A stretch of 62,516 bases of DNA, the filler included, from Sphacelaria rigidula (lineage: Eukaryota): the NCBI GenBank assembly GCA_964200075.2. It is 7 parts of 7 records of this genome, joined end to end, with 100 filler letters (N's around TTAATTAATTAA, not from the genome) between each part and the next. Parts side by side here need not be neighbours in the genome. Positions count along the whole stretch, not along the records: positions 44,729 to 53,572 come from CAXNAA020009956.1; 6 more parts are not named here. One strand, given 5' to 3'. How positions within the stretch are numbered: the first letter of the stretch is position 1; every line of letters starts with the position of its first letter. Positions 2,668 to 53,672 of this stretch are shown in pieces. The translations under genes and the position numbers were made by a program. The notes beneath the pieces were generated by a model. That model saw only the letters and a program-made list of their open reading frames with translations, was not told where the DNA came from and made no database searches.

Positions 2668-2867
2668 CTGGGAAAGTCGACTGTACTGCGGGTCCGGAGG
2701 GCGGTTGGCGAGTAAGAAGGAGCCGGGTGTGGATTATGTTTGGAAACCGCAGTCTGTTGCTCATGTACGGCATGGTACGTCGTTTGGTGTTTTCTTGTGT
2801 TGTGATGTACAGATTGTCGAGCTTGAATGCAGAGGCTGTCGCCGAGCAGTACGCCAAACATGCTTAC

Positions 2868-8846: not shown

Positions 8847-8946
8847 NNNNNNNNNNNNNNNNNNNNNNNNNNNNNNNNNNNNNNNNNNNNTTAATTAATT
8901 AANNNNNNNNNNNNNNNNNNNNNNNNNNNNNNNNNNNNNNNNNNNN
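8847..8946. other. Artificial contig linker (N44-TTAATTAATTAA-N44)
   Basis: Fixed 100-nt spacer with stop codons in all six frames; identical at six places. Confidence 0.98.
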
Positions 8947-9694: not shown

Positions 9695-9903
9695 GGTGAC
9701 TACCAACGGTTCGGGTTTTTATGGAAATCGAGAAAGATGGATACGCGTTCGTCAAGTGCGGCGTAATAGGGATAGAAAAGTTTTGTCAAACTTCACGGCT
9801 GCTGTACAAGCGATGATGCGACAGCAACAGCAGTTTCAACAACAAGTACAGCAGCAAGTCCAGGCTCAGGGGCAACAGCAGCAACAAGCGCTGATGGACA
9901 GAA

Positions 9904-9905
<2 letters not shown>

Positions 9906-9956
<51 letters not shown>
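9906..9956 (+). repeat. (CAG)17 microsatellite encoding polyQ in Copia gag
   Basis: Directly visible. Confidence 0.95.
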
Positions 9957-9959
<3 letters not shown>

Positions 9960-10916
9960 GAACAACAACAAAAACAACTACAGCAGCTTTCATTGCCTGG
10001 GTCCGCACCAGCGGACCCACGACAGGCCAACGCCAAGATCGAATTCCAGAAATTCCCCGGGGGAACCCGAAGACTGGAACGACTGGTGCCAAGCACACCG
10101 GGCTCAGTTGACGGCGCTGGGATGCATCGATGTGCTTAGTTCCATCGGTGACGAAGAAGTGAGAGTGGGACGAGAGGAGTTCGACAGCAGCGGCCTCGAC
10201 CCACACTCCATAAGGAAGATCAATTACGTGTGGGTTTCCGTTATCACCACTTGTAAGAAAATCGCCCTTGAGGTTGTACGGCCCTCTGTTTCTCCCAGCC
10301 AAGCCTGGTGAGGGCTGGTGGAACACCACCACGCAAGCGGCTAAAAAGAACGAAAGAAGCTCATCAGGAAATTCTACGGTTTGAGGGTGGAGCTCGGGGA
10401 GCACACTCGGAAGTATCTACTGAGGGTTGATCGCCTCTTTCGAAAACTTGAGCGCGTCGGAAGGACATCGACGTCCTAATCATATCAGGGCTGATGAACC
10501 AGTACGACGCGGAGGCTCGGATGCTCGAAAGTTCAGCCAACTGCTTCGATCTAGACTGGATCGAACGCACGATCCTCAACCAGTACGAGCGTCTCGAGAG
10601 AGAAAAGACAGCTACACGCTCACACGTACTCATACCTACGAACTCGGGTAACGACAGATCTGCTTCATTCTGCGCCCTCTTCCCCAAGCCCGGGCACGAT
10701 GCAAGATATTGCCGCAAGTTTCAAATGATCGCCAGCAACCGAGGCGGAAGACGAAGTTCCAACCGCCGTAAGGGCAATACCACAGGACGGAACAACGCGG
10801 GAGACCGCACGACCCCCAACTTGGCATGTTTTCTATCGCGAAGGGCCACGAAAGACTTCCGAGTGTCCGAATCGCCCCAATAATGTAGGAGCGAAAGGCC
10901 GTCAGCAATGCATGAT

Positions 10917-13615: not shown

Positions 13616-15305
13616 AAAGCTCCACACCGAGAGCGACCTTCACGAGATCAAGGCCCGACGCCATTGTGCCACGCCGAAGCCCAACAACGCGTCACCACCA
13701 AAGCCCGACCAAGTGGTGCTTGGAAAGCCGCCCGGTTCGAAGCTCGACGCCCAAGACATCATGGTTTTCCACGAGATACTCGGACACCCCAGCGAGGAGA
13801 TAACGGGCGGGACTGCCAAGATGGTCGACATACAGCTGACAGGCGAATGACGACCATGTGCGCCCTGCCCCAAATCACGCGCGCTGATACGCGCGCTGGG
13901 CGATTCTTCGTCGATCTCGCCGGATCCTTTGCGGGCACATCGTTTTCCGGTACCCGCTACGCAATATTGTTTATCGACGACTACAGCCGGTTCAAGATCA
14001 TACGGTGTCTGGAGAAGGACGATACCACTGCGGCTTTTAAGGACATCCTCGCCTCGCACATCACCCCGGAGGCATCAAGATCGACATCATCTGTACTGAC
14101 GAAGGTGAATTCGAGGGGGGGCTCCAAGATCTCCTCAACAAGCTGGGAACAAAGCACGAGCCGCCACCTCACACTCCTCAGTACAACGCGGTCGCCGGAA
14201 TGGGAATCCGATCGCCTCTAGGCCGAAGCCATGCAATACGCCTCCGACATGACCAACAAGAGCGTCACGTCGTGACTGGGCCGCGGACTTACGCCCTACC
14301 CTGGTATGACCAGAAACCTTCCTTCACTGGGATTCTTCCGTTCGGCACCGTCGGCTACTTACGCCGGCACAATCCGCCACACAAGCTGGCCCCGCGCGGA
14401 AACAAATGTATCCTGCTAGCCACTGCGAAGGATCACCCGTCGCTCACATACCGAGTGCGAAACCTCACCGCCCGATCAATTGTTCTGCATCAATCCGTTG
14501 TCTGACACCCCCTCGAAGCCACCTGCATACGACGGGCCGACGGCCGCGAAGTCGGGGGGGGGGGGGACAAGCACACCCTCACGCCGGTTGGTCACTCGAA
14601 CGACCTTCAAGACCGTTGGCGAATACCCCTCCGAAAAAGAGACAGAGAGAGCTCGAGCGGTATATTTCCGAGCAGAAGGAGGAAGAGCAACTCAATACGA
14701 CGACCACCACGCCCACGACCGCTTCTACACGCAAATTGGCAAGCTAACACACGGGCGAAACTCCAGTCATCCTACCGCGATGCACACGTGGAGGAGGGTT
14801 AACTGCGCTACTCAGTTCCGCGATAAAAGCTCAGACCGCGGACATGGAGACCAGGAAGTTGGAGGATACCATGGCCGAAAACGTGGCAGCCATCGTCACC
14901 GCTAAGCGAGCTACCAGAAGAACGAACAACACTGGTACAGGCACAATCATCACCAGAATGAACCCAGTGGCGAAATGGTACAACTCTCTCGCGGGGTCCG
15001 CGAAACGGTAGACTGCCCCAAAGGCAGAACTGTTCTTGGCACCAGACTCGTCTTCAAGAGGAAGATCAACGAGGACGGTCAGATCGAGAAGTACAGATGC
15101 CGATTTGTCGCCCACGATTTTCACCAGATGCCCGGTACCCACTACCAGGAGTCCCCCTCTCCCACATCAGCGAAATCCAGCATCCGGATGGCACTTGCGC
15201 TCATGGCGAGACGCAACTGGAAAGGATGCTAACTGTGGAGATGACCTACCTCGAGGCGGACGTCGAGGAATAAATCATTAACAGTATTCGAGTAGAGGAA
15301 TACTG

Positions 15306-15894: not shown

Positions 15895-16499
15895 TCGATT
15901 CGTGACCGCACAAGTCGGCACCAGCGAGGAGGCGTGCCATCAAGGTCGGCACAGCAGAGAAAGTGAGAAGAGTCCAGTACCCGGAATATTTCTTGGACAA
16001 TTTCCAGGCGTGACAATGTGTTACACGTTATTACAGATGAATAACCAAGGATAGTCATCTATTACATAGCTCATCGAGAGCATGAGTAAATTCAATGGCA
16101 GTGCGTCTCTCGAATGGAAACGCTGTACACGCGCCACCATCTCCCTGACGCATCTACGAATATCTGAAATCAACAATGGGGGTGTTCGCCCCACGGAACA
16201 TTTTGGTGACGCTGTGCGCATACATGATGTAGAACCACAGCCAGTTTCGAGATCGACGTCATCAAGAAGAACTCCCATTGATACCTGCTAAAGAGGCCGC
16301 CATCAGCATACTAGTCGTACGCGTTTGTCATCAGAGGGGGCAGCCGAGGGAAGTTGAGGATCATGCAGGCGGTGCGGCGGGCTTTTCCCGGACACACGTG
16401 AGGTTTGTCGTGAATAAGACAGAAATTGAAAATTTGGATTGCTGTAATGAACAGTCGTTGAATTTTTACACCCAACAACAACCGGCCCAGCGGCAAGTT

Positions 16500-17210
16500 T
16501 TATTCCACTCTTCAAGTCAAAGGGTCTTGAAAATCCTAAGGGGAAAATATCGTGGCAAGGTCTGGTCGCAAAAAATCAGAACTCCTCGAAACAGAGACGC
16601 TGCGTTTTTATGCGGCAGTTGTTGAACAACGTAAAAATGTCTAGTGGTCAAGACCCTGACGTGTTCTTGATACAAGTTTATCAACTCCGAGACGAGTTGG
16701 TGCACATGGGCGAAGTCATCTCCGACGAGCGAGTGACGGGCATTGTAATCGAGGGTTTGATGGACGACTACGACCAAATAGAGTATAATGCTGAGTGTGA
16801 CCCCGATTTCAGCATTTCCGACATTGAAGTCATGATGCGGAACATGTACTTCAATCGCGTTGCGCGCTGTATTTTAAAGGAGATCCATAGTAATGAATCA
16901 GCCATGGTAGCGGCCTCACCGCTCGATTCATCAGCGTAATCTACAAAAATTCAGGGAAAATACTACTTCCGTGTGAAACCAGGTCACCATATGCGTGACG
17001 GTCGTCCCAAAAACAGCCCAACAAACAGTAAAAACAGGCGGGTAAAGTGGTGCCGTCTTCATTGTACCGGTAGACACGACAGTTCTGAGCGCAAGAGTCA
17101 AATTTTCAACAGAAGTGCGTACAATAGCAATAGCGAGAACAACAACTACCAAAGGAGAAGCAACAACCGACACATCAGCAACAACAGCAACGACAGTAAC
17201 GACAGCAATA
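16500..17210 (+). pseudogene. Copia gag fragment (UBN2/Retrotran_gag_2-like plus degenerate Zn knuckles)
   Basis: LLNNVKMSSGQDPDVFLIQVYQLRDELVHMGEVISDERVTGIVIEGLMDDYDQI; KPGHHMRD; KWCRLHCTGRHDSSE. Confidence 0.85.
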
Positions 17211-17792: not shown

Positions 17793-17892
17793 NNNNNNNN
17801 NNNNNNNNNNNNNNNNNNNNNNNNNNNNNNNNNNNNTTAATTAATTAANNNNNNNNNNNNNNNNNNNNNNNNNNNNNNNNNNNNNNNNNNNN
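17793..17892. other. Artificial contig linker
   Basis: Same 100-nt N/TTAATTAATTAA/N spacer. Confidence 0.98.
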
Positions 17893-26738: not shown

Positions 26739-26838
26739 NNNNNNNNNNNNNNNNNNNNNNNNNNNNNNNNNNNNNNNNNNNNTTAATTAATTAANNNNNN
26801 NNNNNNNNNNNNNNNNNNNNNNNNNNNNNNNNNNNNNN
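26739..26838. other. Artificial contig linker
   Basis: Same 100-nt spacer. Confidence 0.98.
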
Positions 26839-28126: not shown

Positions 28127-31100
28127 GCACCCCCCAAAACTCCGCACTACTCGAAGTAGAACGCGAGTTTGACAAAACAGTAGACCCCGAGTATCACGTA
28201 TGCTACCTTTGTCCCCTCGGTAGTGACACACGACCTTGTACTGTCATGTTCCACAAAAACAGTAACGTGAACATCGACACTCAACGCCAGTGTCTCAAGC
28301 GAACTCAGGAAAATCAACCATTCTCCAACGGTAATTTCCACGTAAGCATTCTCACATAAAGCAAAGGTGTCAAGTGTAGTACCATCTTAACCAGTAGCAT
28401 TCGATATCATCATATTTTCAAAGCTTCATACCATACTTTGCCTGCAAACGTGCTCGCACCTTTTTTGTTAGTCCCAACTTACGCAGCTCAGATTTTGCAA
28501 GTCGCGGGGCTCCGTCCAAAGTATTTTCCAGAGGCTCCTACGAGTTTTCATCTTTGCCAAATCTGACCCACTCCACTTGTACATAAAATCCATCTCCTGC
28601 CTCGTCCTCAGATATACCGACAATAGCCGCCATCTCGAACTCGCCTTGTGCAAAAGCATACTGGAACACCTCCTTAACATCAGCCGTAATCTTCAGCTCC
28701 TTGTCCGCATAAAATCGAAAGCGGGCGATATGCACATCCTGTACCTCGCCTTTCACAATGTTCTGTACCCCGTACACATGTTATTGTTCCGCCGTCACAA
28801 TCCGCCGAGGCCCCGTCCACGTACTCACAAGCTCCGGCGTGGTTCCCGAACGCCTCACCCTCGCCGCCAGCACGTAATCGCCCACCACAAAGTTAGGAAG
28901 CTTCCCCTTACTAGCCACACGTCTCTGTAGATCGCGATTCTTGTCGACACGCTGCGCCACCTTCTTGTGCAACTCTTGCTGAGCCTCAACGATTGACGTC
29001 ACCTGTCGTCTCAAAGCGTCTTCGTCAAGCACATCGACGCTCCATTCGCCCCCAGTTGACGATGCCAGAGTAGAGAAACTGGTGCGCGGTGCCCGGCCAA
29101 ACATAACACGGTCTGGCGTGCTAGCATAACGCTCTCGGAAAGCAGTGTTCAATGCCCACTGCACTGCAGGTACCAAACTCACCCATATACGAACATCACG
29201 CCTTTCCTCTTGCAACATTGCCTTCAAGGTACGAACAATCTCACGCATCATTCGCTCACAGATACCATTAGACCATGGCGCGTTAGAAACCGCGAATCAG
29301 CGATCCATCTTCAGCGCTTTCTCAAGCGATGCCGTATCGCTGACCCATACCTCTGGCGACCCCAGCGTTTTGCACCATGTCAACAGATGCTTCACCGTCG
29401 TGGCCGCCGTACAAGACTCCGTGGGCTCCAACCACACGAAGTTGCACAAATCGTCCATCATGACTAAGATATACTTGAACCCATCTCCTTCGTCCAAGCC
29501 ACTAGTTCCAAGGGGGCCACTCTCGCCAACGTAGAGAAAATCAAAATGCAGCACCTCCTCTGGGCGGGTACCATCATGCACCGTCTCCCCGAAGGGACGC
29601 GGGATCCTCTCCCCCGCCTTGAAATCCAAACAGTGCAGGCATTGCTTCACAAACTCAGTCACATGAGTCTCCATCCGGAACCAACAGCAATACTCTTGTA
29701 AGCGCTGTAAAGTTGCCACAACCCCTCGCTGATCAGCCCCTTTCATGTGAGCGCATACCATCAAGCGTGTTTGTAGTTCTCTCGCTTCCGGTGGGATCCA
29801 CAGTACATCCCTTCCTGGAACATGCACGCGAAATAAACCCTCATCGTCTTTGAAGACACGCTCAACAGCGGCAGTAAACGTCTCGGCCCCATCAACCATA
29901 CCTTCTAACCCCTCACGGGCTTGCTCTTGGGCTTCACGAACGGCCTCTTTCGACGGTAGCATCTCGTCCGGCTCTCCATTTGCAAAAACAGCGATGGCTC
30001 TCACGGATACCGCTGGAACGTTCACCCATCGGGACAGTAGATCTCCCCAGCAGTTACGCTCCCCAGAAATATGCCTGATTGAATGATCATACTGCTCGAG
30101 TACAGTCTTCCACTATTCAAGACGCTGGGCGGCAGTTTTCGCCAGTGTGGGCACACAGGCTTCTTTCTTCGGGATCAAAAACATAAGCGAGATTGCGATG
30201 GTCCGTAAATATGGTCACTCCTCCCCTCAAAAGGTACTCCAACCTACGAAACGTACTCACGATGGCATATCCTTCCTTGTCCACCGTAGCTCACCGCAAC
30301 TGCGCTCCTCGAAACGTCCCACTAAAAAATCCCAGGGGCTCATGACTCATGTCCTCCACCGCTATATTACGGTCCAATTCAGCGCTCGGTACCTGGGTCA
30401 CGAAACTACCCCAATGAAGATCCGACGCGTCTGGAAACATCATCACCTCATAGCCCTCCTTGGGATGTGACAGGGCAACAGCATGTGCCACCAAATCTTG
30501 CGCCGCTGTCCAAGCTTGCGCACGCTAAAACGTCCACGCCGCTTCCTTGATTGTTCTGTTTGAAGCAACCTGCTTTGTACGACGCACGTTGCCCACCATA
30601 TGCTCCTCGAGCAAAAGACGAAGTGGCTCCACCACTTCAGCCAGGCACGGAAAAGACGTCCGCAGCCAAGTCACCGCTTGCAAAAATTGCATCAACTCGC
30701 CCGCGGTTCGAGGACGCCTCATATTCGCCAAACCGCTCAGCCGCTCCCTGTCGTGAGCCACCTGCCCACCTGAGAGAACTTTCCCGCACCACGTAATTTG
30801 CGTATCATAAAACATACACTTGTGTGCAGCCGCAAAAAGACCAGCATCCTCGAGGCGACTTAAAATCGCATTCAGCATGCACAGTAAGTCATCTTCATTT
30901 GCCCCCCACCACAAGATGTCATCTACCCACACCTTACATGGAAGTCCAGTTAATAGCTTCGTCATAGTACCCTGAAAATACCCCGTAGCGTTGAGTACTC
31001 CTTAAGGCACGCGCGTAGGCGTGAATAACCCGTCAGGGGTTGAAATAGTGAAGATTTCTTGGGCATCTGCCGCCAAAGGCATCTGCCAGTATCCCTGCAG

Positions 31101-33437
31101 TATGTCTAGCTTTCCAAAACAAGCAGCCCCTTACAAATCCGCCATCTCCGCTTCTTGGTTTGGCATCACAGTCAGCACTTTCTCAATCTGCTTAGTAACG
31201 GCACGGTAATCACTCACCAGTCTGAAACCGCTTTTTTTAGGCGTTGCAACAGCCGCGCTCGCCCATACTGCCTGCAAACTGCGATACACGAGCCCGAGCG
31301 CCACCAACGTCGCCATGCAACGTGCCAACCATGCCATGTATTGGAGAGTATGCTCACGGCCTAGCCTTAACTGCCGTAGCACCAGGTTTGAATGTCACCT
31401 TGAGAGGCTCGACACGAGCGGGCGGATCACCACGTAGCGCTCGCCAAAAAGCATTCGCACGGCGGTTTACAAGCTCGCGAAGCTTGGCCACGCCGCTCGC
31501 GGATATACCATTCTTGGCAGCTGCTAGTACCGCTTCCTCCAGCGCGATCTTACGCTCAACCAGCTCTTTTTTGGGGGTCATACTCATCTCCGGACCGCGC
31601 GACACCAGCCGCTCGACTGAGGGATCCACGGGCTCCTCTCGATCACCTTGGTGCTGCAGAGCCTCAACCGCGATGTTGATACGTCGACAATGATTGAATT
31701 CAGGCGTGTCTACACCACGCACCGAAATGTTTCTCGCCCGTGCACAGGCACCTAAACTACTGTACACGTCGATACCAAGCTCCTCTAGCATAGGGCTCCC
31801 CATGATAATGACATCATCGGTACCCGGCATGACCGCATAGGAGCATGGGTCCGATTCAACCGGACCCCAGCTGGTGTGCAAAGCGGTTCGGACAGGGCAA
31901 GTTTTCTGCTTCACGCGCTCGACATTGCCATTTGCCAATTTCACCAACTGTTCACCAGCCATCAGTCTCACCACTTGGACATCTGGAACCATGGCTTGCA
32001 ATTTCGCCGCCACACCAGCTGACATGGTCGTAAGTCCAGATCCTGAATCTAAAATAGCCTTGACCGGACAAAGACCCTTTGCCCCTGCACTCGGGACAGA
32101 CAAGTCGGCAAGACACCACCTTTCCTTGTTATCTACTTGCAGACCCTCAGATTGAAAACCTGACACCTCACCCGCTTTGAGCGATCTCCATGCTGGTACC
32201 GCCGCAGAGCTCGAACCCGAGAAAGAGTGCGATGAGATGGTCTGCTGCACGCCACCAGAAAAACCGACCGGTTCTGGTGGCAACGTCGCCCCCCCCGCTG
32301 GGAGCACTTTGTCCATCGGCTAAAAAGATAGCCCTTGTAGGAGCAGGACTCGTGCCCCCTCCGCGAGGCAGCTGTCCAGGGCCCTGCGACAGGTGCTGTT
32401 GTTGCTGCTGCTTGTCGCCAGCCTCCGTCTGCTCACCGTCACTACGTTGTGTAGCAGTAGCCTGGCCTTGCTGCTTGCAATCCTCCCGGGAATGGCCCTT
32501 GTTTCCACATATGAAACATCCTGCATAATTTGGGGCTGGTTTGCGGGTTTTCCCGAAACTGGCAGTCCCATTTCCACTGCTCGCCTGTTTTCCACCATTT
32601 GGTTGGCGCTTGCTTCCGGAGGTCCCGCTACCACACCTTTGTTTCAGCTGCGGCTGCTGACGGCGCTGCTTATCCGCTGCTTCCACCGTCTTACATGCCT
32701 CCGCTGCTTCCCGAGCCGTGTTAAACACAAGCCCAGGGTCCTCTTTCCACCCCCCCTCCATGTTCAACATGTTGAGGACTTTAGTTTTGAATTCGGGGGG
32801 GGTGAGTCCATTCAACATTTCCCGCGTTATGATTTGGGCCGGTCCTGGTTTGAAACCTGCATCATCGCGGAACGCACGCTCAGCACTAGTATTCTCTGCA
32901 AAAAAATCCTCCAGGGCACCCCATTGCCCTTCTACTCTTCCCATTGCAGTTTGCTCGTTGCGGGCAGCCAACGCTTTCCGCACACCAGCAGCAGTAACTG
33001 AAGGATCAATCTCTTCATCCTGCTAACATTTCGCGTGTCGGCCTAGTGCCTGCTTGAGGTCATTTTCGTCAAGCACGGATCCGTAAAAAATCGTGCGTGA
33101 CAAACACACACGGATTTACCTCGGCACCAGATCAGTAACAGTCAGTAAGACGGCCTGCATGCTACGTCCTTTGTTGTTCATTCTGACCGCCTCTTTATAC
33201 TCGACGTATTTCCGATAAAAACGTCGGGACGCATTTTCGCTAAAATGCCGTCCGTACTATGGGGCTTTCAGCGATCCTGCAGGCATAAGCTCAGTGAACT
33301 TCAACTTCACCTCTTTACCTGCATCGCCATCACCCCCTCTCTTGCGCGTTGCCATAGCTGCTCGCAACAGTTCCAGCCAACCTAGCCGTCTCTCCGTTGT
33401 CAGTGAGCTCCCTCACGTTACAAAGTGCACACTCCTG

Positions 33438-33807: not shown

Positions 33808-35293
33808 GTCCTCGTCATTCCACACGTACATCGGAGCCATCTCCTTCGTGACCCGCAAATATACCCACGATGGCCTTCATCTCATACTCTACGTGAACAT
33901 ATGCATGCTGGAACACCTCCTTCAGATCCGCAGTGACCTCCAGTTCTTTGTCCGCATAGTACCGAAGACGTGCGACATGCGCTTCCTTGACCTCGCCATT
34001 CACGATATTCTGAATCTCGTAGACATATTTCTGCTCCGCTGTCACGATCCTCCAAGGCCCTGTTCACGTACTTACGAGTTTCGGCGTTGTTCCTGAGCGC
34101 CTAATCCTCGCAGCCAACGCATGATCACCCACCATGAAAATTTGGCGACCGCCCCTTACTGACAACACGTCGTTGCAATTCACGAATCTTCTCAACACGC
34201 TGCGCCACCTCCTTGTGCAACGCTTGCTGCGCCCCCACGACTGATGCCACCTTCTCCCGCAGCATGTCATTATCCAGCACATCAAGTCGTCACTCGCCGC
34301 CAGTCGACGATGCCAGGGTTGAAAAACTTGTGCGCGGCGCCCGTCCAAACATCACATGGTATGGCGTACTGGCGTAGCGCTCGCGGAATGCCGTGTTCAA
34401 TGCCAACTGTACCGCAGGCACCAGTCCCACCCAGTCACGAACGTCGCGCCTCTCTTCTTGGAGCATAGCCTTCAAAGTAAGGACAACCTACCGCATCATC
34501 CTTTCACACGTACCATTTGACCACGGCGAGTCGAGAACCGCGAACTCCCTGTCCAGCTTCAGCGCCTTCTCCAGTGCTCGCATCACATGGTTTTTAAAAT
34601 GCGACGCGGTGTCACTAACCCAGACCTCCGGCGGACCCAACGCCTTGCACCACGCCAACAGATGCTGCACTGTCGCTGCAGCTGTACAAGGCTCGGTGGG
34701 CTCCAACCACGCGAAATTGCACAGATCATCCATCATTACAAACATGTACTTGTACCGGTCGCCTTCATTCAGGCCGCTCTCGCCGGTCGCCTTCATTCAG
34801 GCCGCTCTCGCCCAGCGGGCCACTTTCGCCAACGTGCAGATAATCAAAATGTATCACCTCACTGTCTCCCCTAGTGGCCGCGGGACCGTCTCACCCGCTT
34901 TGGAGTCCACACAATGCAAGCATTCCCTCACAAAATCTGTCACTAACAGCAATACTCTTGCAGCCGCTGCAGTGTCACCACAACACCCCGATGGCCCGCC
35001 TCCTTCATGTGAGCACAAACCATCAAGCGTGTTTGCAGCTCTTTTGCTTGCGGGGGGAACCACAACACATTCCGCCCTGTTACATGCACGTGAAATAAAC
35101 CCTCACCGTCTTTCGAAACTCGCCTAATAGCTGCTGGAAAAGTAGGGGCTCCAGCAACCATCACTCCGAACCCGGCTTGAGCCTGCTCTTGGGCCTCACG
35201 AATAGCGTTCTTCGACGGCAGCTTTTCATCAGGCTGACCACTCGCAAACACGGCCGCAGCACGCACAGACACCGCCGGAACGTTTACCCACTG
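33808..35293 (-). mobile_element. Related Gypsy fragment (integrase plus chromodomain), interrupted by Gypsy 1
   Basis: LQTRLMVCAHMKEAGHRG, MMDDLCNFAWLEPT, SPWSNGTCERMMR, HVARLRYYADKEL parallel to 28468-30025. Confidence 0.9.
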
Positions 35294-35352
35294 TGGACTC
35301 CAGCAACCATTGTTACCTAAGGTTAGGGACATTGTGTGGAGTTGCGGGTCTG
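35294..35352. mobile_element. ~59-bp mini-MITE related to 27820-27893
   Basis: TGGACTCCAGCAACCATTGTTACC...GTTGCGGGTCTG; imperfect TIR; shares CATTGTTACC. Confidence 0.55.
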
Positions 35353-35683
35353 ACTGCCGGACTCTGTGATGGGCGACCTCCATAACGTGAGGCTTGGTTT
35401 TGCTACTCTGGTGGAGAGAGGCTATGGTCCTGTTCTCCTCTACTGTGCTGAGGGTCAATATATGAATGACTAAAGCTGCTGAAGTCGATGTGCCTGTGAG
35501 GGGAGGAGTCCATATGGCGATCTGATCTTGAGTGACAGAAGTCTATTCTAAACGTTCATTGAGTCCGCTGAGGCGGTACGTCCGCTGAAAAGCAGCTGAC
35601 ACTTCAAGATAGGGAAGTCTGCAGGCCTGATCAGTTTGCAGCAAACAAGACCAGGTCAAGGCGTGTTGACGTCGCGATGAGTT

Positions 35684-35783
35684 NNNNNNNNNNNNNNNNN
35701 NNNNNNNNNNNNNNNNNNNNNNNNNNNTTAATTAATTAANNNNNNNNNNNNNNNNNNNNNNNNNNNNNNNNNNNNNNNNNNNN
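35684..35783. other. Artificial contig linker
   Basis: Same 100-nt spacer. Confidence 0.98.
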
Positions 35784-36844: not shown

Positions 36845-39265
36845 TCAGAACCTGCGCAGTTCTCCGAGGGGAGAGCGGGTTGCATTGGCAGGCGAACCGC
36901 GTGATTTTGACCCAGCGCTGGACCTCACCGGGGCGCGGACGACCCCGAAATGTCCGTTGTGCAGCGGCTGACTCCTAGTGATCGCATTTGAGCCAGGATT
37001 AAAGCCGATGCCACCATCAGAGCTGGACTTGTTGGTCGCGGGTTTCCGCGGGCGCCCGGTGGAGGACGGGGCGGTTGTCTTCCCGTGAGTATTCTTGCAG
37101 TCCTTGCAGCGACACTTTTCGGAACAGGCGATGCCGCCGTTGAAGCATTCACAGTATCGCTTGAGGCAGGCGGACTTGCTGCATCCGCAGCCGGTGGTGT
37201 GGACGAGCGCCGAGCTGCTCTTAGTCGCGCCTCCATCGGCCGTCGTCATCTGTACCTGAGGTAAGACAAAGAAGGATTACGGGGTCATGGCAGATGCTGA
37301 GTTTCTCGTGTGGCAGGTCGATGAGGCGGCGATTGAGTCCATGTGTTGATTGCGAGGTGTACACCTGTTGTTAGATACGTCCGACGTTCAGCACTGCGTT
37401 ATTTCCGTTTCATACTTCATGTCCCAAGTTTTGTCGGAGAACGTCTGTAGCCTCCACGCAAATAATATTTTGTGTATACTGCATCATGCCGGACCTCCGT
37501 TTTGCAGATCTTAGCGTCGAACGCGTGCGGAGCCCGGCACAGCAATTCCCGCACAGCAGTCTTTCGCTCCGTCTCGTGCTCCGTGGAGTTGAAACAATTC
37601 TCGCACTTGCACGTCTCCGAGCAAAGGAGCTGACTCGCGAAGCATTGGCAGTACCTATGGCGGATATAATTCAACGGGAGAGAGGCCAATAGAGGCGGGG
37701 GCAGAGATTAGGAACTGGGCTACGACCTGATGGGGGCATTCCGAAAAACCATGCGAATATATGCATGACGGGCGTATTGGCAGTCAGCAGCAGTTTCGCG
37801 ACTTTGTCTTCGCTCACCTCAAGGCATCATGTCCCGCTCTAATCCTGCTGATTCCGACATCAAATCTTGTACGTGTGATCAACTCCACACCTAGAACATC
37901 TAACCCCTTGATACTGACTGCAGTAAAGGAGAAAAAGAAAAGAGCAGATACGTGACTACTTGAGTTTACATATTTTCATTTCAAATGAAAACGCCCAAGA
38001 GCCGACCCCCAAAAGGACACTCACAACTTGAGACACATGGACTTCTTGCAACTGCAACCCTCCGTCGCCGTTGTACAAACCGCCGCCACTCCCAGAGCAC
38101 CATTACTCCCCGAAGCGGCCGTGGTCCCTAACCCACTTCCCGTCATCGCGTGCGAGGTGGACCGCCTTTGCGTCTGGCTAGGTATCGCGGAGCCTGCCCC
38201 CGGGCTGCCGCCACGTCCCACTCCATGCTTCTTGCCACTCGCGAGCATGTCCCGCGCTGCCCCGCGGTCCCTCCCTCTGGCTACCACACTGTCCACCGTG
38301 ACGTTGATCGCGTCGCCTTGCCCGGATATCGCTCCCGGTGAATCCTTCTTGATTCCGCCCCCGACACTATCGCCACCGCTCCTGCGCCTGCTACTACCCC
38401 CCGTAATCCCGGCAGCAGCCCCTGACACTGCTGAGGCGACGCCGTTGGCGGTATTACTCCTAGTGTTACTGTTACATTGGCCTCTGACGGGGGTAGATTT
38501 CCCGGTTTTCCGTCCCTTGCTGTCACCCGCCGCCTCCGCCGCCGCCCCTCCCCCCCCCTTCCGCGCTGCCGTTCCCACCGACGCTGCCGCCATAGTGGCA
38601 GCCGTCTTGTGGCGTTTCTTATGGGGCAACGAGGACGCTGGTGGCACGACCACGGCGTGGGACGAACGAGTAGAGCGCTCCCTCGCTGTGTCCATCGCTC
38701 CACAGGCGAATGGTCTATGCTTGACAGGATCGCTGCTGTCATCATCAGGGGAGCACATCTTTACATCGTTCATTTCGTTGCTATCGCCGCCGCCCGACCC
38801 AGCCCCACCTCGGTCATCATCTTCGGCGGCATCAATAAGTGGGGGGGTTGTTGGTTTGGGCCGGCCGGGCGGAGGTGGTGCAACGGGTGTCGCCGCGAGA
38901 GACGGGGAAACCGCTCGATTGCGCCAGCTACTCCGTAGATGCAAGAGCAGATGTGCTGTGCTGGTTCCCGGGGTGAACACGGTGCCGGCGCCGGCGGTGT
39001 CCGAGCCATCATCTGCCTCTGTTGCTGGTTCCCCTGCTCGGTCACCTTTGACGCTGTCGCTGTGGCTACTATCTTGCGCTCCTCCGCGTCGAGATCTTCG
39101 CTTACCGGCGGGTTCAGGGGTCAAGAGCGTCGAGTCATTGATACGCGATGACATCCGCGGAGACGCCACGGGGACGTCGGTGGCAGCCGACGGGGCTCTT
39201 GCGGCGGCGGCGGCGGCGGATCTCTTCCTCCCCTGTTGGGGAGACCCGTAAAATGGTGCCGCCAT
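36845..39265 (-). CDS. Tesmin/TSO1/LIN54-like protein with two CXC (CRC) domains; spliced
   Basis: Exon 39265-38025 (ATG...[19 protein letters not shown]); exon 37654-37495 ([26 protein letters not shown]...[10 protein letters not shown] hinge); exon from 37255 ([34 protein letters not shown]); both splices in phase; 3' end either donor at 36929 or stop at 36845. Confidence 0.92.
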
Positions 39266-44628: not shown

Positions 44629-44728
44629 NNNNNNNNNNNNNNNNNNNNNNNNNNNNNNNNNNNNNNNNNNNNTTAATTAATTAANNNNNNNNNNNNNNNN
44701 NNNNNNNNNNNNNNNNNNNNNNNNNNNN
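44629..44728. other. Artificial contig linker
   Basis: Same 100-nt spacer. Confidence 0.98.
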
Positions 44729-46117
44729 TATCTTCCCTGCAATGAAGGGATGGGACTTCAACCTCATATTTTGTTTCAACCCCAAAAATTAGGATCGGCT
44801 GTTTTATCGTGGCGGCGAAGCCGCAGAAACGCCACGTTGCGGTTGTCGTGTGCTCGACTGTCCTGCTATTTGTGGAGCCTGTTTCGTACAATGGGTCATG
44901 TCTGTGATGTTGAATCCGGGATTGTCCGTGTTGCGGGAGATATCGGTCGCTACTGTTGGTCGAGTGTTCTTTGCTGTTAATGGACAGCTTTCGCACGACG
45001 GGATAGTCTGTCATGTTGAATCCGTGGTCGTCGTTTACCGTGTTTTGGGGGATATCGGTCGCTACTGTTGGTCGATTATTGTCTTACTTCTTCCGTTTCT
45101 TTTATATATTCACTACATTGCGGGTGTTGCCTGCTTCATTGTTGCCCACGAAGGAGGGGGAATGGATATTTTATGCCTTTTCAGTTGCTGTTTCTGGACC
45201 CTGTTACGTACGATGGGCGTTTCTGCGGTGCAATAGTACTGGACTCATAATTGCGAACACTCGTGTGTGTCCGTCGCAAGTCTTTGTGTCCCCGGGTATC
45301 GGGTTCCTACTCGTTGCTGTGGGTGGAAAACGTGAACAGGTGTCTTCGTATATGTTCTTCGACGGTGGAGGTAGTCTTTTGCCCGTTCTACCGTATCGGT
45401 ACAATCGTCAAAACATCATTAAGCCTCTTCTTCATACCCTGCCCCCGGGACATGGGTCTCCATATGCACAAAGCGCAATATACTGCACTTGAAGCTATGG
45501 TCTGTTCCGTCACCTAGTGCGAGCAACGATTACCGGTCCTCATGTACCTTGGCTATCGACCTCATTAAGCGTGGCGGCGGAAGCCGCCGAACCCCTTATG
45601 TATATATATATATATATATATTATCCTGTGAGAATTGTGCTATTTTGGCCAAACACCGTCAAAATGACCCTTGCTTCTTGTATTGTGTCAAACAACTGCA
45701 GCATGTGTGACACATTTTTCATGGGATGTTTTTGCACTTTGGTGGAGGCTGCATCAGTTAGGTATACATGACTAGGCACTGGGACACCGACCGGTCCACG
45801 GGCGCTTGAGGTATTCCTGCCCGGGTTCTGGGATGCCTTCGGTTCCACTGGCACTGGAGTAGGACAAAGTCTTAGCGTTAGTACCAAAGCGATGGGTCTG
45901 ATGTTCATCGTGCGAGCATGGTGCTCTTTCGTGAAACATCGACATGTTCTTTCCTTCGTATCATTGTGTGGCATATAAGCGTGTCACAGTGATCTATTTC
46001 CACGACATGCCTTGCCCTTTGGTGCTGGATGCATCTGCTGTTTCTACATGCCCAGGCACTGGGACACTGATCGGTCCACGAGCGCCTGAGTTATTCTTGT
46101 CCAGGTTCTGGGATGCG

Positions 46118-46191
46118 TAGACTCCGGGCAACATTGTTACCTTGATTCGATACATGACTGCAGTGGAAAAAATTCATAGCAGGCGTTTATA
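46118..46191. mobile_element. 74-bp short interspersed repeat / mini-MITE
   Basis: Homologous to 27820-27893. Confidence 0.75.
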
Positions 46192-46460
46192 GTCTGGTTG
46201 ATGGATAACGAGTCTGAGAGTATGATCGATGGACTCCGTGATGTATGATGTTTGCATACGAGGTGCAAGGTCACTTCTGGTTAGCGAAGACTGCTGTTTG
46301 TATAACTGCTTGAAGTCTTGAAGTCTCTGGAGCCTGTGACAGGGAGGAAGCCTCTGGGGCAGCACTGTAACCTTGTTCTGATTCCAGGCAAGTTCACAAT
46401 AAACGTTTACTCAGGAAACTTGTCGTTTCTCGATAGGGTTTTTGAAGCCGCACCCCACAG
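46192..46460 (+). repeat. Truncated LTR related to the Gypsy 1 LTR
   Basis: GTCTTGAAGTCTCT...ACCTTGTTCTGA...AATAAACGTTTA collinear with the reverse complement of 33480-33730. Confidence 0.7.
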
Positions 46461-47791
46461 TCTGTAAAACGGGGGACGCTCACGTTGAAAAACAGGGGGG
46501 AAGGAAGCGGCGGAAAAAGAGGCGCTGGTCATATAAGCCGAGGCAACTGAAGTGCAGAAGCCTATTAGAAGGATGGCAGCGCGCAGGGTTATGGCAGGAG
46601 TAGAGCCGAGAAGGTTCTGAGGTAGTGCTAAGGTGCGCTTTAATATCGGTTGATCAACAGCTGGGTTGCCCGGAGAGCCTGCCAAAAAACGCGGCGCAGT
46701 TACTACCCCAGACGGGAGAACTGCAAGAGGGCTGGTTCAAGGTTGGCCAGCCGCGTTCAAGAAGAGGAGTCTACGAAGGACTTCAAAACATCGTGAGAGC
46801 TGCGTGACAAAAGATGCTGTGGTCGTCATGGTGTGGTGACAACGCTCGTCTTGGTGTCGGGCAGAGTTGCAGTTTCTATGCTTGGGAAGTAGTTGATTAT
46901 TGTTATTTTTTTTATAGCTGAACATGTTCGCCCCCTCTGCTCTTTTGGGGTACATAACCGTCACGACAAACGAGTTATGATGATGCGAGGAAAACAAGAT
47001 AATATAGCGTGCACCATATGCCAAGAGTATGACCCAAAGTACCGAACCACTGAGCAAAGATACAAGAGTCATACAAGAACAACCTAAACGATGCCTGGAG
47101 CCGGCTGCGAGACAAGCACAGCAACTGAAGCTAATTCAAGAGAACTACACGATACCCACACGAAACCTCAGATGCCGTGATGAAGCCCTGTACTCGGACA
47201 CGTTTCTCCTGACTACAGCTATAGACCAACCATCTATTCGACTAGTGGTCACCCAGAAGAATCGGCTGCCACAATAGTCGGCCTTCCTGGGTTTCGATCG
47301 ACACAGTCTTGTTGTCCTCGGACACCTTGACATCTGCGTTCCCGGTGTCGCGGCCTATCTTGGACAACCACGACAACGTTGCCGTCCACTGCCCCCTCGG
47401 CTAGGAGGACCGGAACACGGCATTCGTCAAGTCTTCTGTCTACGCTTCCGCTGAGACGGGAATAGAACAACGTCCTCATGTTAGTAACAAAGCGGGGAGT
47501 ATAATGTTCATCATGCGAGCCTTGTGCTCTTTGGTTGAAAATCATCGATATTTTTTGTCAGCACTACCCCGATTGTTGAGAGGCTATCGTCCTTGGGAAG
47601 TTGCACCCCAGTCACCGTCGACATGTCAGATATTTTTCCGTTCATGCCTGCATTGTTCTAACGTCGTTTTTTTGTTTTCTTCTCTTGCGACTTCCCTTGA
47701 TCTCCGAATTGTGACCCCGGGCTACTGCTCAACCCGTGAGCGTTTTGCTAGGACGCTCGAACAGTCTGTTGAACAGTCACCTCCGTTTCCG

Positions 47792-49640
47792 TTACCTGGT
47801 ATCTTCGGATTTCGACTCCGGATGTGAGCGCTTTGCTAATCCGTTGCCATGACGGTATATATCGAGGAGGTGTCTACCTTGTGGTGTTTCATCAGCTGCT
47901 GGGCCGTAGCTTTTGAGTCTCAACCTATACTTATGGTTATGAAGACTTTTCCGACCTGGTCCTGGAGCGTAGACCACCACTTTTTCGACAGCGTAACGTT
48001 GTAGGCAATGTTTCGTCTGGCTGGTCTCTCTGGTAGAGGTATCTGTTTGTCTAGGAACAACTCGCTCGATTTATCGACATCTGATGCGGGGGGCGTTTCC
48101 CGCGGACGATATTTCTCCAAATGTGCGGGATTCACCGACATTTCTTTAGAATCGTTGCATATTTTGATCATGTACCCAACCAGTGATCGTCTCTTGGTTA
48201 TCATGAAAGGTCCTCTGCATGGCAATTGGAGTTTCGGGCTCGGCCCTTATCAATCCTGGTATGATTGGTACGTGTGTATCTTTTGACTGGGTTTGAACAC
48301 TGGGAACGGTTACTATTTGTTTCTGCTTTCTTGGTCGTTCGCTCTTTCTAGTAGAGCTTATCTCGCAATTTCAAATCCAAACTGTAGGTTTTCCCGTGTT
48401 TCTTTGGAAAATTCTTCGGGTGTTGCGGATTTTCCCGGATGCCAAATATGGTAAAACTCTATCAATAAACGTTCTGGCTGTCGACATGGCTTGTCTATTT
48501 GGTATCGAAATGAGAAAGGCATACCCTGTGAGGTGGACCATTACGGACAGTACCTATCTACATAGTACTCCAGCGTTTTGACATGGAGAGCTGTTTTGTA
48601 CTCGACTAGGTCTTTCGATACTCTCTCGTATGGCCGTCCTACCGGAACGTGTCCCATCGGCATATTCTGGCCGGTTGACTGACAGCTCTCGGTCACTTTG
48701 CACTACCTTCAAACGGTCGAGCTTTTCAGCTGACATTTGACGGTGATATGTGGTTGAGCTATTTGCAGCGCGCATGGTCTTTTGGCCCCTTACCGCATAT
48801 TTGGGTAAGCGACGGTTTGATTTCAGCTTTTTGTCGCTCTGGAGTAGCGCAAACAGTCGTGAGAGGATGCGCGGAACATCATGAAGTTTCTCCGGTTTTT
48901 GTCTCTCACCATTGTCATAAAGTGTTTCCGGGATTTACATGTCGGCTCGACAGGTTGGCGATTTGTACCATTTCCGTTTTATTCGTCGCCGACTTCGTGC
49001 GTGCTGTCCTTGAAACAATGATGCGCGTGAATGCTTGAGGTACATAAGGCGATCGAGTGTCTTCCTCAGCTATTGTGCGTGGCTGCACGACAGCTATTAT
49101 TGTTGCTGACGGGGTGTTTTCTGTTTCAACTAATGCTTCCATTTCATGCAGAAACCCTCGGATTTTTTAGGGGGGGGGCGTCCGCGCTTCTGAGATCGAT
49201 GGGTCCTGGCGGTACTGGTTTTATATCATCAGCTGCCATGATGGACGGGTGTTCATCTATGATTTGTTTTACACATCGGACAGATCATGAGCTATCTGAA
49301 ATAGCTAAGCGAAGAGAACTCTCAGATACTTTGCACAAAAATACAAAACACGTGACAGCGGTGTCCGAGAAGCCAGAGCGTTACCTTTCTGCTAGATCGC
49401 GTGCTCGGCGTCCCTCGCTGCCAGGAGCTAATACGGAAGTAGTGGCCAAATGAGCTAGCTCATGATCCGGATCAGTACTCTAAGAAGAAGTGATATCGAG
49501 GTAGCTCATGAGCTGTCCGACGTGTGAACTTTTTGCTGATACACGGCACATCTGCTACGGAATCGATTGTGATTTTTTCAGCGGGGGTGCCGTTTACGCT
49601 GGCCGCGACTCTCACACGGGCTGACGCACAGGATGGCGCT
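47792..49640 (-). mobile_element. Highly decayed Gypsy pol remnant
   Basis: Protease ITIDSVADVPCIS; integrase GHVPVGRPYERVSKDLVEYK and VLSVMVHLTGYAFLISIPN; GPF motif CRGPF; chromo-like KYRLRLKSYGPAAD. Confidence 0.75.
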
Positions 49641-52378
49641 AGGGGCGCATCTATATACCTGGCGAGCGATGATGCGTTGTATGAGTCATAACAGTGATCA
49701 TTCAAGATCGGGTTTGAAAATGAAGATTGGTGTTTCGATTTGGAATCAGCAACCCCTACTTACAACGTCATTGCTTTTTCTGGCTGCCGGTTGAACATGT
49801 GTCGGCGCGGAATGTAACGTTACCGATTTATTGGGGTATAGCGCAAAATGTTGCATGATGGGAGCCTCAACAAGTTGAGCTTCATATTTGATGATGATGG
49901 ACGTTCGTGTGGTGTAATACTTTTTCCACGTCTGCTCTGACTACTGCCTAGGAATCAACTCTCATCGTGCTCTTTTCCAGCTTCTGCTTATATTATGTAA
50001 TTTCACATCACAAATGAGGGCTGTTTTGGTGCCCGTCTGGAGGAGTTATTGTACTGACTAGGAAACCCGTTTCTCTCCAACCTTTTTTTCATCAGACGGT
50101 TGGCACTTCTCCCATTTCATGCGTACTAAGGTGCGGAATAATGAACTGTGTAGTTTCAACTTCTCTCAGCTTGTGGGCTGGAATGCGGTAAGACCATCCC
50201 ATACACCTCCTTCTTTCGCTTGCTATGGTAGGGAATGACAAGCTCGTGCATTCGCAGGTTGGGTAAGGTTTTTGTTAGTACTATTTCGAGTCACCGCGTT
50301 TATAAAGGTCGGCCTGCTTGATTAACTGCCGTGCCTTTCGCACTATGGTGGTGAAAAGTTGGTTGATAGATGTAGTTTCGCTGTTTTAGTAGCCATTCTG
50401 GTGACATATAATGCACGCTGACGAGACCAATTTCGCGTTTTCGCTGTTTGACTTGCCATACAGGTGACATATACTGCACCCTGAGGAGTCTAACTTCGCT
50501 TCCCGCTCTTTGATTAGCCATGCGGGTGACATGTAAATGCACATTGAGGGGGCTAATTTCGCGTTGACTCAAACACATGGCTCCAATAACCTTTTAACTC
50601 GAATAATTATGCACATGACCCATACGTTTCACCTGGAGTAGCGTTCCTTGCGGGACCCTAGTGTTTCTGGTGTCGAGGAGCAGTCGATTCTCGTCCTAGA
50701 TTTTTGCTTCTACGGCCTGTCTTGCTTGAGTTCTTTTTGTGGTGTCGCCAATGTGAGGAAGGCGTATCGCTAGAGTAGTCAAAGACCTACGGGAGAGACT
50801 GCCGTCCTGATGCCGAAGGAACTCCGAGGCTGGCGATGATCTCCTCTTGCATATGTAGGCAAGAAGGGATCAGACTAGAAATGGTCGCCAGGGGCGACCA
50901 GTACCTCGGGGGATTGGACCGTCCTAATATTAGACTCTTCCTGACATCACCCCGAGCTGTCTAGTTACGTCGGCATTACAGGATCCTCGGTAACCTGGTC
51001 CTTCCGGACCGTTCCTACCTTGTCCCTGCTTGCGCTGGTTCTTCACACATGTGTGGCATCAGTCTCTGATATGTCACTGCAAAGATATATCTTCCACACT
51101 TTATATAATTTGGTGGGCCGAGAAATTAAGAGACGAGGCGGGGTGGCCTTCGCCGGATCCATGGCGGTAATCCGAGGAGTGGGTAGTCCACGGAACCGAA
51201 GACGGGACTAACACGAAAAACAAGAAAGAAAGAACCAGCCAACGATGGCACGCAACGGAGTTGAATTAAGCAACGGAAACACATACCAAAAGAAAAGAAA
51301 AGTACCCACAAGTGACAGAAAACAGAGACATAAAGACATGCAAAATCGCACACAAACATTTCCCAAAGAAGAAAAGATAAGGAACCACTTAACTCTGGGA
51401 CACAGTCGATTTGAATCAAGCATCGAAAACACAAAAAAGTAGATTATGGTACAGAAGTGTAGACAACTACCGAAAAAATCAGAATACGGACACATCCAGG
51501 AATGAAAAATCGCAGATGTAAATTCTCAAAAAAATGAAATGAAAATTCAACCACAACAAGCAATCAATGTAAACAAAGAACCACTCTCAACAAACAAACA
51601 AGCAAACTATATAGATGCAACGAATCAGTAGGAAGACGTGGTCGTATGAACCCTCCGGCTAGACCCCCAGGGAAGGCACAGGATACCCCATCGGATAACG
51701 ACGGCAGACGAGTGGCGATGAGGTCGACAAATCAGATTGTATACATGAAGACATGCGAACACCCTAGTCCACACTGTACGATGCGGCATAACGCAGTAGT
51801 TGATATACACAGCACGAAAAAATATTGCACGACGTCCGAGGACGTCCGTCTCGGCGAAACCACACGAGGTGCATCTTACACGAAGAGCGAAGAACGTATG
51901 CCGAAAAAGCAGAATATTCACACGGCAAAAATAAGGGAAGGAAAGATCATTCAAAAGACACCCGAAAGGATACTGACACACAAATAGTAGCAATCACGGC
52001 GCTGGTCGTTTTGTACTGTACGGGGATAGGGTTTGCTGCAATGCCGTGCGAAGAAGGGAAACCCTGGGAAAAAACAAAGAACACATGAGTGAAGGAGAAC
52101 TAATTACAATCAATCGAAGAATAACACAGAAATGCAGAGGCAGCTACGTACGGCTACGACGCTCGCCAAGGGTGAAGCCAGCACACTAAGGACACGTCCG
52201 GCGGGAGTCGTCGGTAGAAGCGGAGAGTCGTCTGCAAGTTGAGTGGAGTAAGCCGTCGCAGGACCCGTCACACGGTGCCATGCCGATAGAGCCAACCGTG
52301 ATACTGTCAGGTTCGGTGCAAAACAACCGAACTAGAAGCGGCAGGTCATCCGAGCCGTCGTCCGGAGAACCAGGACCC

Positions 52379-53501
52379 TTACAGAAAGAGGCGTGAGGGA
52401 ACGAGGGCGGCACGCGGGCTGAACACCATCGTCGGAATCGCTGTCCGAGCCAACGGGGAAGTATGGCACACCTGGATCCGGACGTCGGCGGCGGCTGCGG
52501 AAGCCCGGCGGCGATTCCTCAATTCGCCTACGGCGTCAACGGCATCGGCGACCTTCGCGCGGCGTCCAGCGTGGACCTCAACCTGGTTGCACGTGAGCTC
52601 TATCCACTCGGCGTCTTGGTGGTCCCAAAAAGAGCGTCTGTCACCGGAACCGCTGGAGAAGAAACGGGTGAAAGCATGCTCACAACGGAAAAGGGTGGGG
52701 CACACCAGAGCGACAAAGTAAGCCTCGGCCCTCAACGCTTCCATGGGGTGCGCGCTCGTGGGATAAATCCAGGAGGAGCTGGGGAGGTACTCCCAATCTT
52801 GGATCATTGAGGTGAGGATGGCCACAGGAGACGGCGTCAACGGACGCAAGAGCTCCTCCCGAAAGCGTAGGACGCAAGACCATACATTCTTCTTTCCGAG
52901 ATCGAGGCGCACTCTTTCACCACCTGTCGCTGTAGTTTCCGGTATTCGGCAAGGGGTGACGTTGATCTCCGTGCACGATACGTTCTTACCCGCGGTCGGG
53001 AAGTGCCCTCTCTGCCGATACCCTTCGAGCAGTAGCCGACCATAGCTGGAGAAAAATAGAAGGCACAAGGAGAAAGGAGCGACACGAACGGAAGAGCGAT
53101 GTGAGGCAATGGACAGGAAACGAGAGGCTAGGAGGGAGGATAGGGTCCAAAGTGAAGGCCTAAAGTGAGATGCGTAATGTAGGAGGGAGAGGTAACGGTC
53201 GGGGAAACGGAGGAAGAGTTCCAGCAAATATTTGCAAGTGAGAAATGAGAGTAGCAAACTAAGAGTGTGCAATATGTAGCAAAAAAATAAAATAAAATTT
53301 GGAAGGGAAGGACGAGGAAAAGATCTTGCCTTCAAAATGTCTGTTTGCGGTCGAGGGGCTTAACGTTAATGTTGAGTCGGAGATCCGATCCCCAACTCTC
53401 GAACATCTTCAGGTTGTTGCGTACGTTCGTATTCATCTTCTTGTTGTCAGCATACGCCTTCATGATTCCCAAAGTAAAAACCCCCTGGACGTGAAGGTTC
53501 C
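52379..53501 (-). pseudogene. Replitron-like Y1 HUH endonuclease transposase, intron-containing, frameshifted, 5' part beyond the contig end
   Basis: Exon 53501-53330 NLHVQGVFTL...KPLDRKQTF(E); intron 53329-53046 (GC donor, TTTTTCTCCAG acceptor); exon from 53045 AMVGYCSKGIGR/GHFPTAGKNVSCTEIN/LAEYRKL/...LTSMIQDWEYLPSSSWIYPTSAHPMEALRAEAYFVALVCP. Confidence 0.75.
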
Positions 53502-53572
53502 CTTTTGAAAAGAGGAGGAAGTAGATTGATAGAATTGCCTCTGTGGCAAAGCAATAGAGAGCAGAAGTCATA

Positions 53573-53672
53573 NNNNNNNNNNNNNNNNNNNNNNNNNNNN
53601 NNNNNNNNNNNNNNNNTTAATTAATTAANNNNNNNNNNNNNNNNNNNNNNNNNNNNNNNNNNNNNNNNNNNN
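53573..53672. other. Artificial contig linker
   Basis: Same 100-nt spacer. Confidence 0.98.

Follow-up and report, generated by a model that had tools for sequence, protein, structure and literature searches.

A dead, low-copy locus in the brown alga Sphacelaria rigidula is very probably a Replitron relic

In a composite stretch of 62,516 bases of DNA from Sphacelaria rigidula (hereafter, the window), we found a locus that is very probably a dead, low-copy relic of a Replitron. On the minus strand, positions 53505–52144 are the relic of a Replitron transposase gene, which is cut at its 5′ side and broken. This gene relic hops between reading frames and is split by an intron, and it can be recognized from the raw sequence. 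The locus is one more decayed Replitron locus for brown algae: Replitrons are already known, as is their presence in this host group, and both the host range and the general picture of Replitrons are unchanged. A PHD-like zinc finger at the C-terminus of the transposases of the brown-algal lineage is the sole point that is possibly undescribed.

The window consists of seven segments of approximately 8.84 kb, which are joined by linkers of the form N44-TTAATTAATTAA-N44, and its GC content is near 50%. Because of this composite structure, features at segment ends are artificially cut, and adjoining segments are not contiguous. The relic lies at the far end of the sixth segment (44729–53572), with the gene on the minus strand. 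Since the segment stops at 53572, the 5′ part of the transposase gene, which would include motif I, is absent from the window; position 53572 is a segment end and no gene boundary, and the 5′ cut is not biological. The next segment was considered as a continuation beyond 53572 and was rejected: the N-terminal part of P0025, a full-length relative described below, was unmatched there by tblastn, and the consensus of the loose-end contigs past 53571 differs from the start of that segment. The features of the locus, together with the linkers, are as follows.

8847–8946, 17793–17892, 26739–26838, 35684–35783, 44629–44728 and 53573–53672: linkers
53506–53572, minus strand: upstream stretch, diverged exon or terminal part of an intron (67% pyrimidine; weak colinear tblastn alignment to 53547)
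53330–53505, minus strand: exon coding for the HUH (Rep) domain, with motif II in the HUQ form (Pfam Replitron_HUH; tblastn with P0025)
53046–53329, minus strand: predicted intron of 284 nt with GC..AG ends (homology to P0025 and P0024)
53011–53045, minus strand: beginning of exon 2, which contains motif III (G-Y-C-S-K; alignments to P0001 and P0025)
53009–53010, minus strand: frameshift, two surplus bases in an AG repeat (the alignments to P0001 and P0025 pass from frame −3 to frame −2 between the G-R and G-H-F codons)
52912–52957, minus strand: stretch in another frame between a +1 and a −1 shift (block L-A-E-Y-R-K-L-Q only in frame −3, flanks in frame −2)
52475–52911, minus strand: Replitron_C (putative oligomerization) domain, followed by a helix (Pfam Replitron_C; 74% identity to P0025 over 183 residues)
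52389–52475, minus strand: acidic Ser/Asp linker (frame −1 alignment, 83% identity to P0025 residues 507–535)
52144–52388, minus strand: PHD-like (C4HC3-type) zinc finger and basic tail (frame −3 alignment, 68% identity to P0025 residues 530–615)
51063–52143, minus strand: low-copy non-coding sequence 3′ of the stop codon, up to the next high-copy repeat (depth)

The gene is first readable in the block K-G-N-L-H-V-Q-G (53505–53482, frame −3), and its H-V-Q codons (53493–53485) align as motif II with H-V-Q of P0025 and H-C-Q of P0024. Exon 1 closes with K-Q-T-F (53346–53335), and a TGA codon follows at 53334–53332. Beyond the intron, M-V-G-Y-C-S-K (53043–53023) contains motif III, G-Y-C-S-K (53037–53023), with a lone catalytic tyrosine (Y1; codon 53034–53032), after which comes glycine and not a second tyrosine. 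With the intron taken out, HVQ and GYCSK thus follow each other in the expected order and at the expected distance. Where the family has its conserved Glu, the window would read Tyr if the stretch upstream of exon 1 is exonic, judging from the weak upstream alignment of P0025. A sequence-only reading of this DNA had quoted peptide blocks of a Replitron-like transposase hidden across frames, and all of these blocks are present on the minus strand; those that come after the motif III block (53043–53011) alternate between two frames down to 52475. The same reading had ended the gene at 52379; this end has to be moved, as the gene runs on through shifts at approximately 52475 and at 52388–52387 and through a premature TAG to the stop at 52146–52144. 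This TAG is the natural stop common to the family and lies approximately 235 nt 3′ of the end proposed earlier. The 3′ third of the gene, with the acidic linker, the PHD-like finger, two frameshifts and one stop, had therefore been missed.

Pfam searches with the raw, uncorrected pieces of the window matched Replitron_HUH (53332–53571, profile positions 40–92, E 0.0071) and Replitron_C (52382–53008, E 6.8e-4), in N-to-C order, and no competing family, including Viral_Rep-type families and helicases, was matched on these pieces. The scores are under the curated cut-offs of Pfam: 17.1 vs 28.5 bits for Replitron_HUH, where 17.1 bits is the score of exon 1 by itself and not of the joined exons, and 20.4 vs 27 bits for Replitron_C. 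Exon 1 falls under the Replitron_HUH cut-off because the domain is split by the intron, a frameshift and the segment end. The profile comparison that the sequence-only reading had suggested thus gave the two Replitron families and neither Viral_Rep nor Helitron models, with the window pieces themselves scoring below threshold. The alignment of P0025 to the window is far stronger: tblastn gave E 5e-111 with five high-scoring pairs in three frames, which reach the last residue of the protein beside the TAG at 52146–52144, and exon 1 is 65% identical to P0025 over 71 residues. P0001 traces the same path through the window in tblastn. By sequence comparison, the match of P0025 is far above what would be expected by chance.

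Relatives of the gene were collected by an exhaustive HMMER search of 1.84 billion representative proteins with a 209-aa piece of the window (cut-off E ≤ 1e-3), which returned 23 proteins. P0008, P0020 and P0021 were discounted among these as long repetitive proteins that were matched in 7–19 stretches; Pfam found no Replitron domain in P0008 and P0021. Word-indexed searches added four proteins, P0025, P0026 (375 aa), P0027 and P0028 (from S. rigidula), and exon 1 as the sole query gave zero matches in a word-indexed search of longer proteins. P0025 is a full-length protein of 615 aa from S. rigidula with 74% identity to the window. It matches Replitron_HUH with 83.4 bits across the whole profile (1–128), and it is accounted for by N-terminal disorder, the Rep domain, the C domain, the linker and the finger. 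Its counterpart P0024 from Ectocarpus fasciculatus (486 aa) reaches 125.1 bits with Replitron_HUH. Both keep motif I (S-L-T-I in P0025 and S-V-T-I in P0024), the Glu before motif II, HUQ and GYCSK. The tyrosine block of P0001 scores 42.4 bits with Replitron_HUH (profile positions 95–128), and P0013 scores 31.8 bits with Replitron_C, above the cut-off of 27. In the disordered N-termini of P0025 (approximately 25–65 and 180–195) and P0024 (approximately 150–230), several R-G-R-P-R-type motifs occur, which we take to resemble AT-hooks.

All seven relatives with a named source are from brown algae, namely Ectocarpus sp. 13 AM-2016, E. fasciculatus, Ectocarpus sp. CCAP 1310/34, Laminaria digitata and S. 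rigidula (three proteins), in agreement with the stramenopile host assumed in the sequence-only reading. The suggestion in that reading that the element may be a new family or extend the host range is not supported: the nearest named relatives are brown-algal, and brown-algal Replitrons are already included in Craig 2023 (PMC10288648), which places Replitrons in "diverse stramenopiles including brown seaweeds", chrysophytes, dictyochophytes, pelagophytes and labyrinthulids, and reports none from diatoms or oomycetes. Our literature search beyond that paper found nothing further on brown-algal Replitrons.

In an 18-member alignment of the relatives, Replitron_HUH was detected in 10 members and Replitron_C in 13 (E ≤ 0.1), and Pfam families of helicases, Viral_Rep or Helitrons in none of the 18 at the same threshold. 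A helicase fused to the Rep domain in homologues, which would have pointed to a Helitron or a CRESS virus, was therefore looked for and found in 0/18. Together with the Pfam matches of the pieces and the tblastn alignment of P0025, this bears out the identification as a Replitron-type Y1 HUQ Rep without a helicase. These data also bear on a possible viral insertion, in which a piece of a Rep from a CRESS-DNA virus or plasmid would have become endogenous. Motif II in the HUQ form and a single tyrosine are common to circovirus-like Reps (Craig 2023, PMC10288648), and a smacovirus Rep domain appeared at rank 17 (E 0.15) in the non-significant Foldseek list of the P0025 model. However, an SF3 helicase or Viral_Rep domain is found in 0/18 relatives, and in full-length P0025 a PHD-like finger forms the C-terminal end in its place. 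The C domain specific to Replitrons occurs as well, and the gene carries a spliceosomal-type intron. Nor does the family have a relative among the IMG/VR viral contigs, where 29 pattern matches were obtained and 0 were upheld by tblastn. We regard a viral origin as extremely improbable. Among JGI metagenome contigs, 160 pattern matches were likewise reduced to 0 by tblastn.

Structural comparison was less informative. The AF2 model of P0025 has a pLDDT of approximately 46–64 in the HUH part and above 90 in Replitron_C, and Foldseek of this model against PDB gave nothing at E ≤ 0.001. Owing to the low confidence of the model in its HUH part, the fold comparison by AlphaFold and Foldseek envisaged in the sequence-only reading thus matched no Rep at a significant level. 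A profile search of PDB sequences with the 18-member alignment gave two matches only (E 0.2 and 1.4).

The intron was delineated by homology. P0025 and P0024 align straight across the 284-nt interruption at 53329–53046, which is 75% pyrimidine on the coding strand vs 44% in exon 1, and which splits an Ala codon (G|CT) two residues ahead of the Met of the tyrosine motif. At other loci, the predicted proteins P0001, P0004, P0009 and P0026 begin exactly at the Met after the intron position, and P0003 and P0016 read into pyrimidine-rich junk right before that Met. Because gene callers behave in this manner at introns, the lineage appears to have kept an intron at this position. The intron that the sequence-only reading had proposed directly before the tyrosine exon is hence predicted at 53329–53046 and supported by homology; its ends are GC..AG, so that its donor is GC and not the usual GT, and the contigs of all four public runs examined below contain the interruption as DNA, aligned with 0 gaps. 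Of the at least two introns proposed in that reading, homology supports this one, and the stretch before the second proposed acceptor, at approximately 53502, can also be read as a diverged exon. The 70 nt upstream of 53505 are 67% pyrimidine and end in a pyrimidine tract and AG, and the tblastn alignment of P0025 continues colinear and gap-free to 53547 but with 3 identities in 14 residues upstream of the K. The stretch 53506–53572 may therefore close a second intron or may be a diverged exon.

Alignment to P0001 and P0025 revealed seven breaks in the gene. One surplus base in a T run (53337–53334) creates the TGA at 53334–53332 at the end of exon 1, and two surplus bases lie at 53010–53009. 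A +1 shift at approximately 52957, in a C run, is undone 15 codons later by a −1 shift at approximately 52912. A further −1 shift lies at approximately 52475 and another shift at 52388–52387, and an in-frame premature TAG (52188–52186) stands 14 codons ahead of the natural stop. The corrections proposed in the sequence-only reading (an extra T, an extra AG, compensating shifts and the splice) are upheld by these alignments. In addition, the Replitron_C region has an in-frame deletion of four residues and carries Ser and Tyr at positions where the relatives have Trp and Cys, respectively, and the second Cys ligand of the zinc finger is replaced by Ser. The copy in the window is dead and unable to make the protein, because of six frameshifts, the TGA at the end of exon 1, the premature TAG and the loss of conserved residues; that the copy is decayed, as the sequence-only reading had held, is thereby confirmed.

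We considered whether the gene is nevertheless functional, with the frameshifts being assembly errors or being bypassed by more introns or by recoding. The +1/−1 pair at 52957/52912 restores the frame, and the indels are located within homopolymers or dinucleotide repeats, where sequencing errors typically arise. However, contigs from four public runs, which represent three samples and two studies, span 52141/52197–53557 with 6–17 substitutions and 0 gaps relative to the window, over the whole gene. P0027 (177 aa, 97% identity), which is derived from a 1417-nt contig of an independent run, carries the same frameshifted reading of the linker and stops at the same frameshift-induced stop as the window. 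Because the contigs of the four runs and P0027 agree, the indels are not errors of the present assembly. Moreover, six shifts, a TGA and a TAG cannot all be spliced out without losing conserved blocks, and a conserved Trp, a Cys and a zinc ligand are substituted. A working gene is thus hardly credible, and we retain the reading of a dead transposase gene. One of the runs with matching contigs is labelled "algae metagenome".

The depth of the contigs sets the relic apart from its surroundings. Per-contig depth over 51063–53557 was 64–86 in run X1 vs 72–74 for other unique stretches, and the summed contig depth of the flanks (44729–51218 and approximately 53558–53572) was 10^2–10^4 times that of unique stretches in the four runs, with a factor of 10^3–10^4 in the last bin before the segment end. 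Contigs of all four runs end at 53557. The relic is a low-copy island between high-copy repeats. In the high-copy flank, many joints and inverted junctions were seen at approximately 49260–49530. A 354-nt contig of run X4 matches 52420–52629 at approximately 90% identity (20 other letters and 1 gap), and at 52555, 52579 and 52588 three contigs per run have another letter. These suggest either a diverged second copy or paralogue or haplotypes of the relic. We found no further Replitron copy within the window by tblastn and no convincing direct or inverted repeats in 50600–53572. The right end of the element could lie within 51063–52143.

Retroelement debris is abundant elsewhere in the window. 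Stop-interrupted Ty3/gypsy-type remnants lie at 28781–33022 and 34943–35542 (both on the minus strand). They comprise the zinc-binding and core domains of an integrase, part of a reverse transcriptase and an aspartyl protease, these three at approximately 28.8–32.3 kb, as well as a gag-like ORF that has a zinc knuckle. Copia-type fragments at 14041–14505 and 16451–16939 (both on the plus strand) gave weak, sub-cut-off Pfam matches to a retroviral polymerase SH3-like domain (14041–14502) and a copia-type gag (16451–16936). A probable host gene is represented by an exon-like ORF at 36848–37276 on the minus strand, in which Pfam recognized a Tesmin/TSO1-like CXC domain (TCR, E 3e-12). Long poly-Q or Q-rich ORFs with hexapeptide-like Y-Q-P repeats occur at 2761–3723 (minus strand) and 9447–10139 (plus strand).

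The single-copy-like depth raises the question of whether the host had domesticated a Replitron-derived gene with a PHD finger as a single-copy cellular gene, which only recently turned into a pseudogene in this lineage. Such a history would also accommodate the conservation of the intron position across loci, the occurrence of a PHD-like reader domain typical of chromatin proteins, and the same broken allele in runs of two studies. Several points speak for a transposon instead. The three distinct S. rigidula proteins are 65–88% identical among themselves, so that one species has several diverged paralogues and the family is multicopy elsewhere. Many relatives are fragmentary, and intact ones keep the catalytic motifs, as expected of an active transposase. 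Low copy number is, moreover, normal for Replitrons outside land plants (Craig 2023, PMC10288648). We therefore consider domestication unlikely, and the locus is best described as a low-copy Replitron relic.

Among relatives whose C-termini are complete, a conserved Cys/His pattern is present at the C-terminal end of P0025 (approximately 550–607), P0001, P0009, P0010 and P0023, and partly in P0002 and P0017; it is duplicated in P0026 (two copies), and its decayed form occupies 52386–52147 on the minus strand of the window. This shared pattern is suggestive of a PHD-type C4HC3 arrangement. Pfam searches with the tails of relatives gave Znf_SCAND3 in 3/3 (E 4.7e-4 to 0.016) and PHD in 2/3 (E 0.007–0.012). 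The AF2 model of P0023 has a pLDDT of 85–89 at residues 200–240, the finger region, and ING3/4/5-type PHD fingers head its Foldseek list, where the best match (E 0.58) is not significant. In the main text of Craig 2023 (PMC10288648), the finger is absent: "PHD" occurs 0 times and "zinc" once, in the legend of Fig. 1 and apparently not for Replitrons, and the C-terminal flanks are called unalignable. We tentatively suggest, as an idea that is rather more doubtful than probable, that the transposase of the brown-algal Replitron lineage, whose N-terminus carries basic, GRP-type AT-hook-like motifs, gained a C-terminal PHD-like (C4HC3) finger, which would read chromatin or histones and direct an HUH rolling-circle transposon to particular chromatin. 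If real and undescribed, the finger would point to an HUH transposon whose integration is guided by chromatin.

A working ancestor of the relic can be pictured as follows. Replitrons are copy-and-paste DNA transposons of eukaryotes with a Y1 Rep-class HUH endonuclease as their sole enzyme. The ancestral gene would have coded for a disordered basic N-terminus, the Rep domain, the helical Replitron_C domain, an acidic linker and the PHD-like zinc finger, with an intron just ahead of the tyrosine exon; its Rep domain would have held motif I (SUTU), the metal-binding Glu, motif II (HUQ) and motif III (GYxxK). By analogy with the Replitron family, the tyrosine of GYxxK would nick one strand (ssDNA) at the end of the element, with the metal held by the His, the Gln and the Glu, and the transposase would then be covalently linked to DNA. 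Strand displacement would presumably be left to host replication or a host helicase, and multimers formed through Replitron_C could supply the second tyrosine for strand transfer, leading to copy-and-paste insertion. The finger may guide the transposase to chromatin.

Among known systems, the transposases TnpA of IS200/IS605 share with the reconstructed protein a helicase-free Y1 HUH organization, multimerization and dependence on host replication. They differ in being prokaryotic and in lacking Replitron_C, and Craig 2023 (PMC10288648) reports that sequence does not link the two. Reps of CRESS-DNA viruses, e.g., that of porcine circovirus 2, are also Y1 HUH endonucleases that have HUQ and, behind the nuclease, a small helical domain, but they have a fused SF3 helicase and belong to small circular genomes with a capsid gene, unlike the helicase-free relatives of the window (0/18). 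Helitrons (RepHel) are, like Replitrons, eukaryotic rolling-circle-type transposons with a Rep nuclease; their Rep is, however, Y2 with HUH and not HUQ and is fused to an SF1B helicase (Craig 2023, PMC10288648), in contrast to the one tyrosine and the lack of a helicase here. The closest system is that of the Replitrons themselves (PF21859 Replitron_HUH and PF21860 Replitron_C), with which the locus shares motif II in the HUQ form, the single-tyrosine GYxxK and the adjacent helical domain of approximately 90 aa. It further resembles them in having no helicase, an intron-containing transposase gene, a low copy number as found outside land plants, and a brown-algal host. The window copy differs from them as a pseudogene without its 5′ part, in which the termini and short direct terminal repeats are not visible, and, relative to Replitrons as described, its brown-algal lineage appears to add the C-terminal PHD-like finger.
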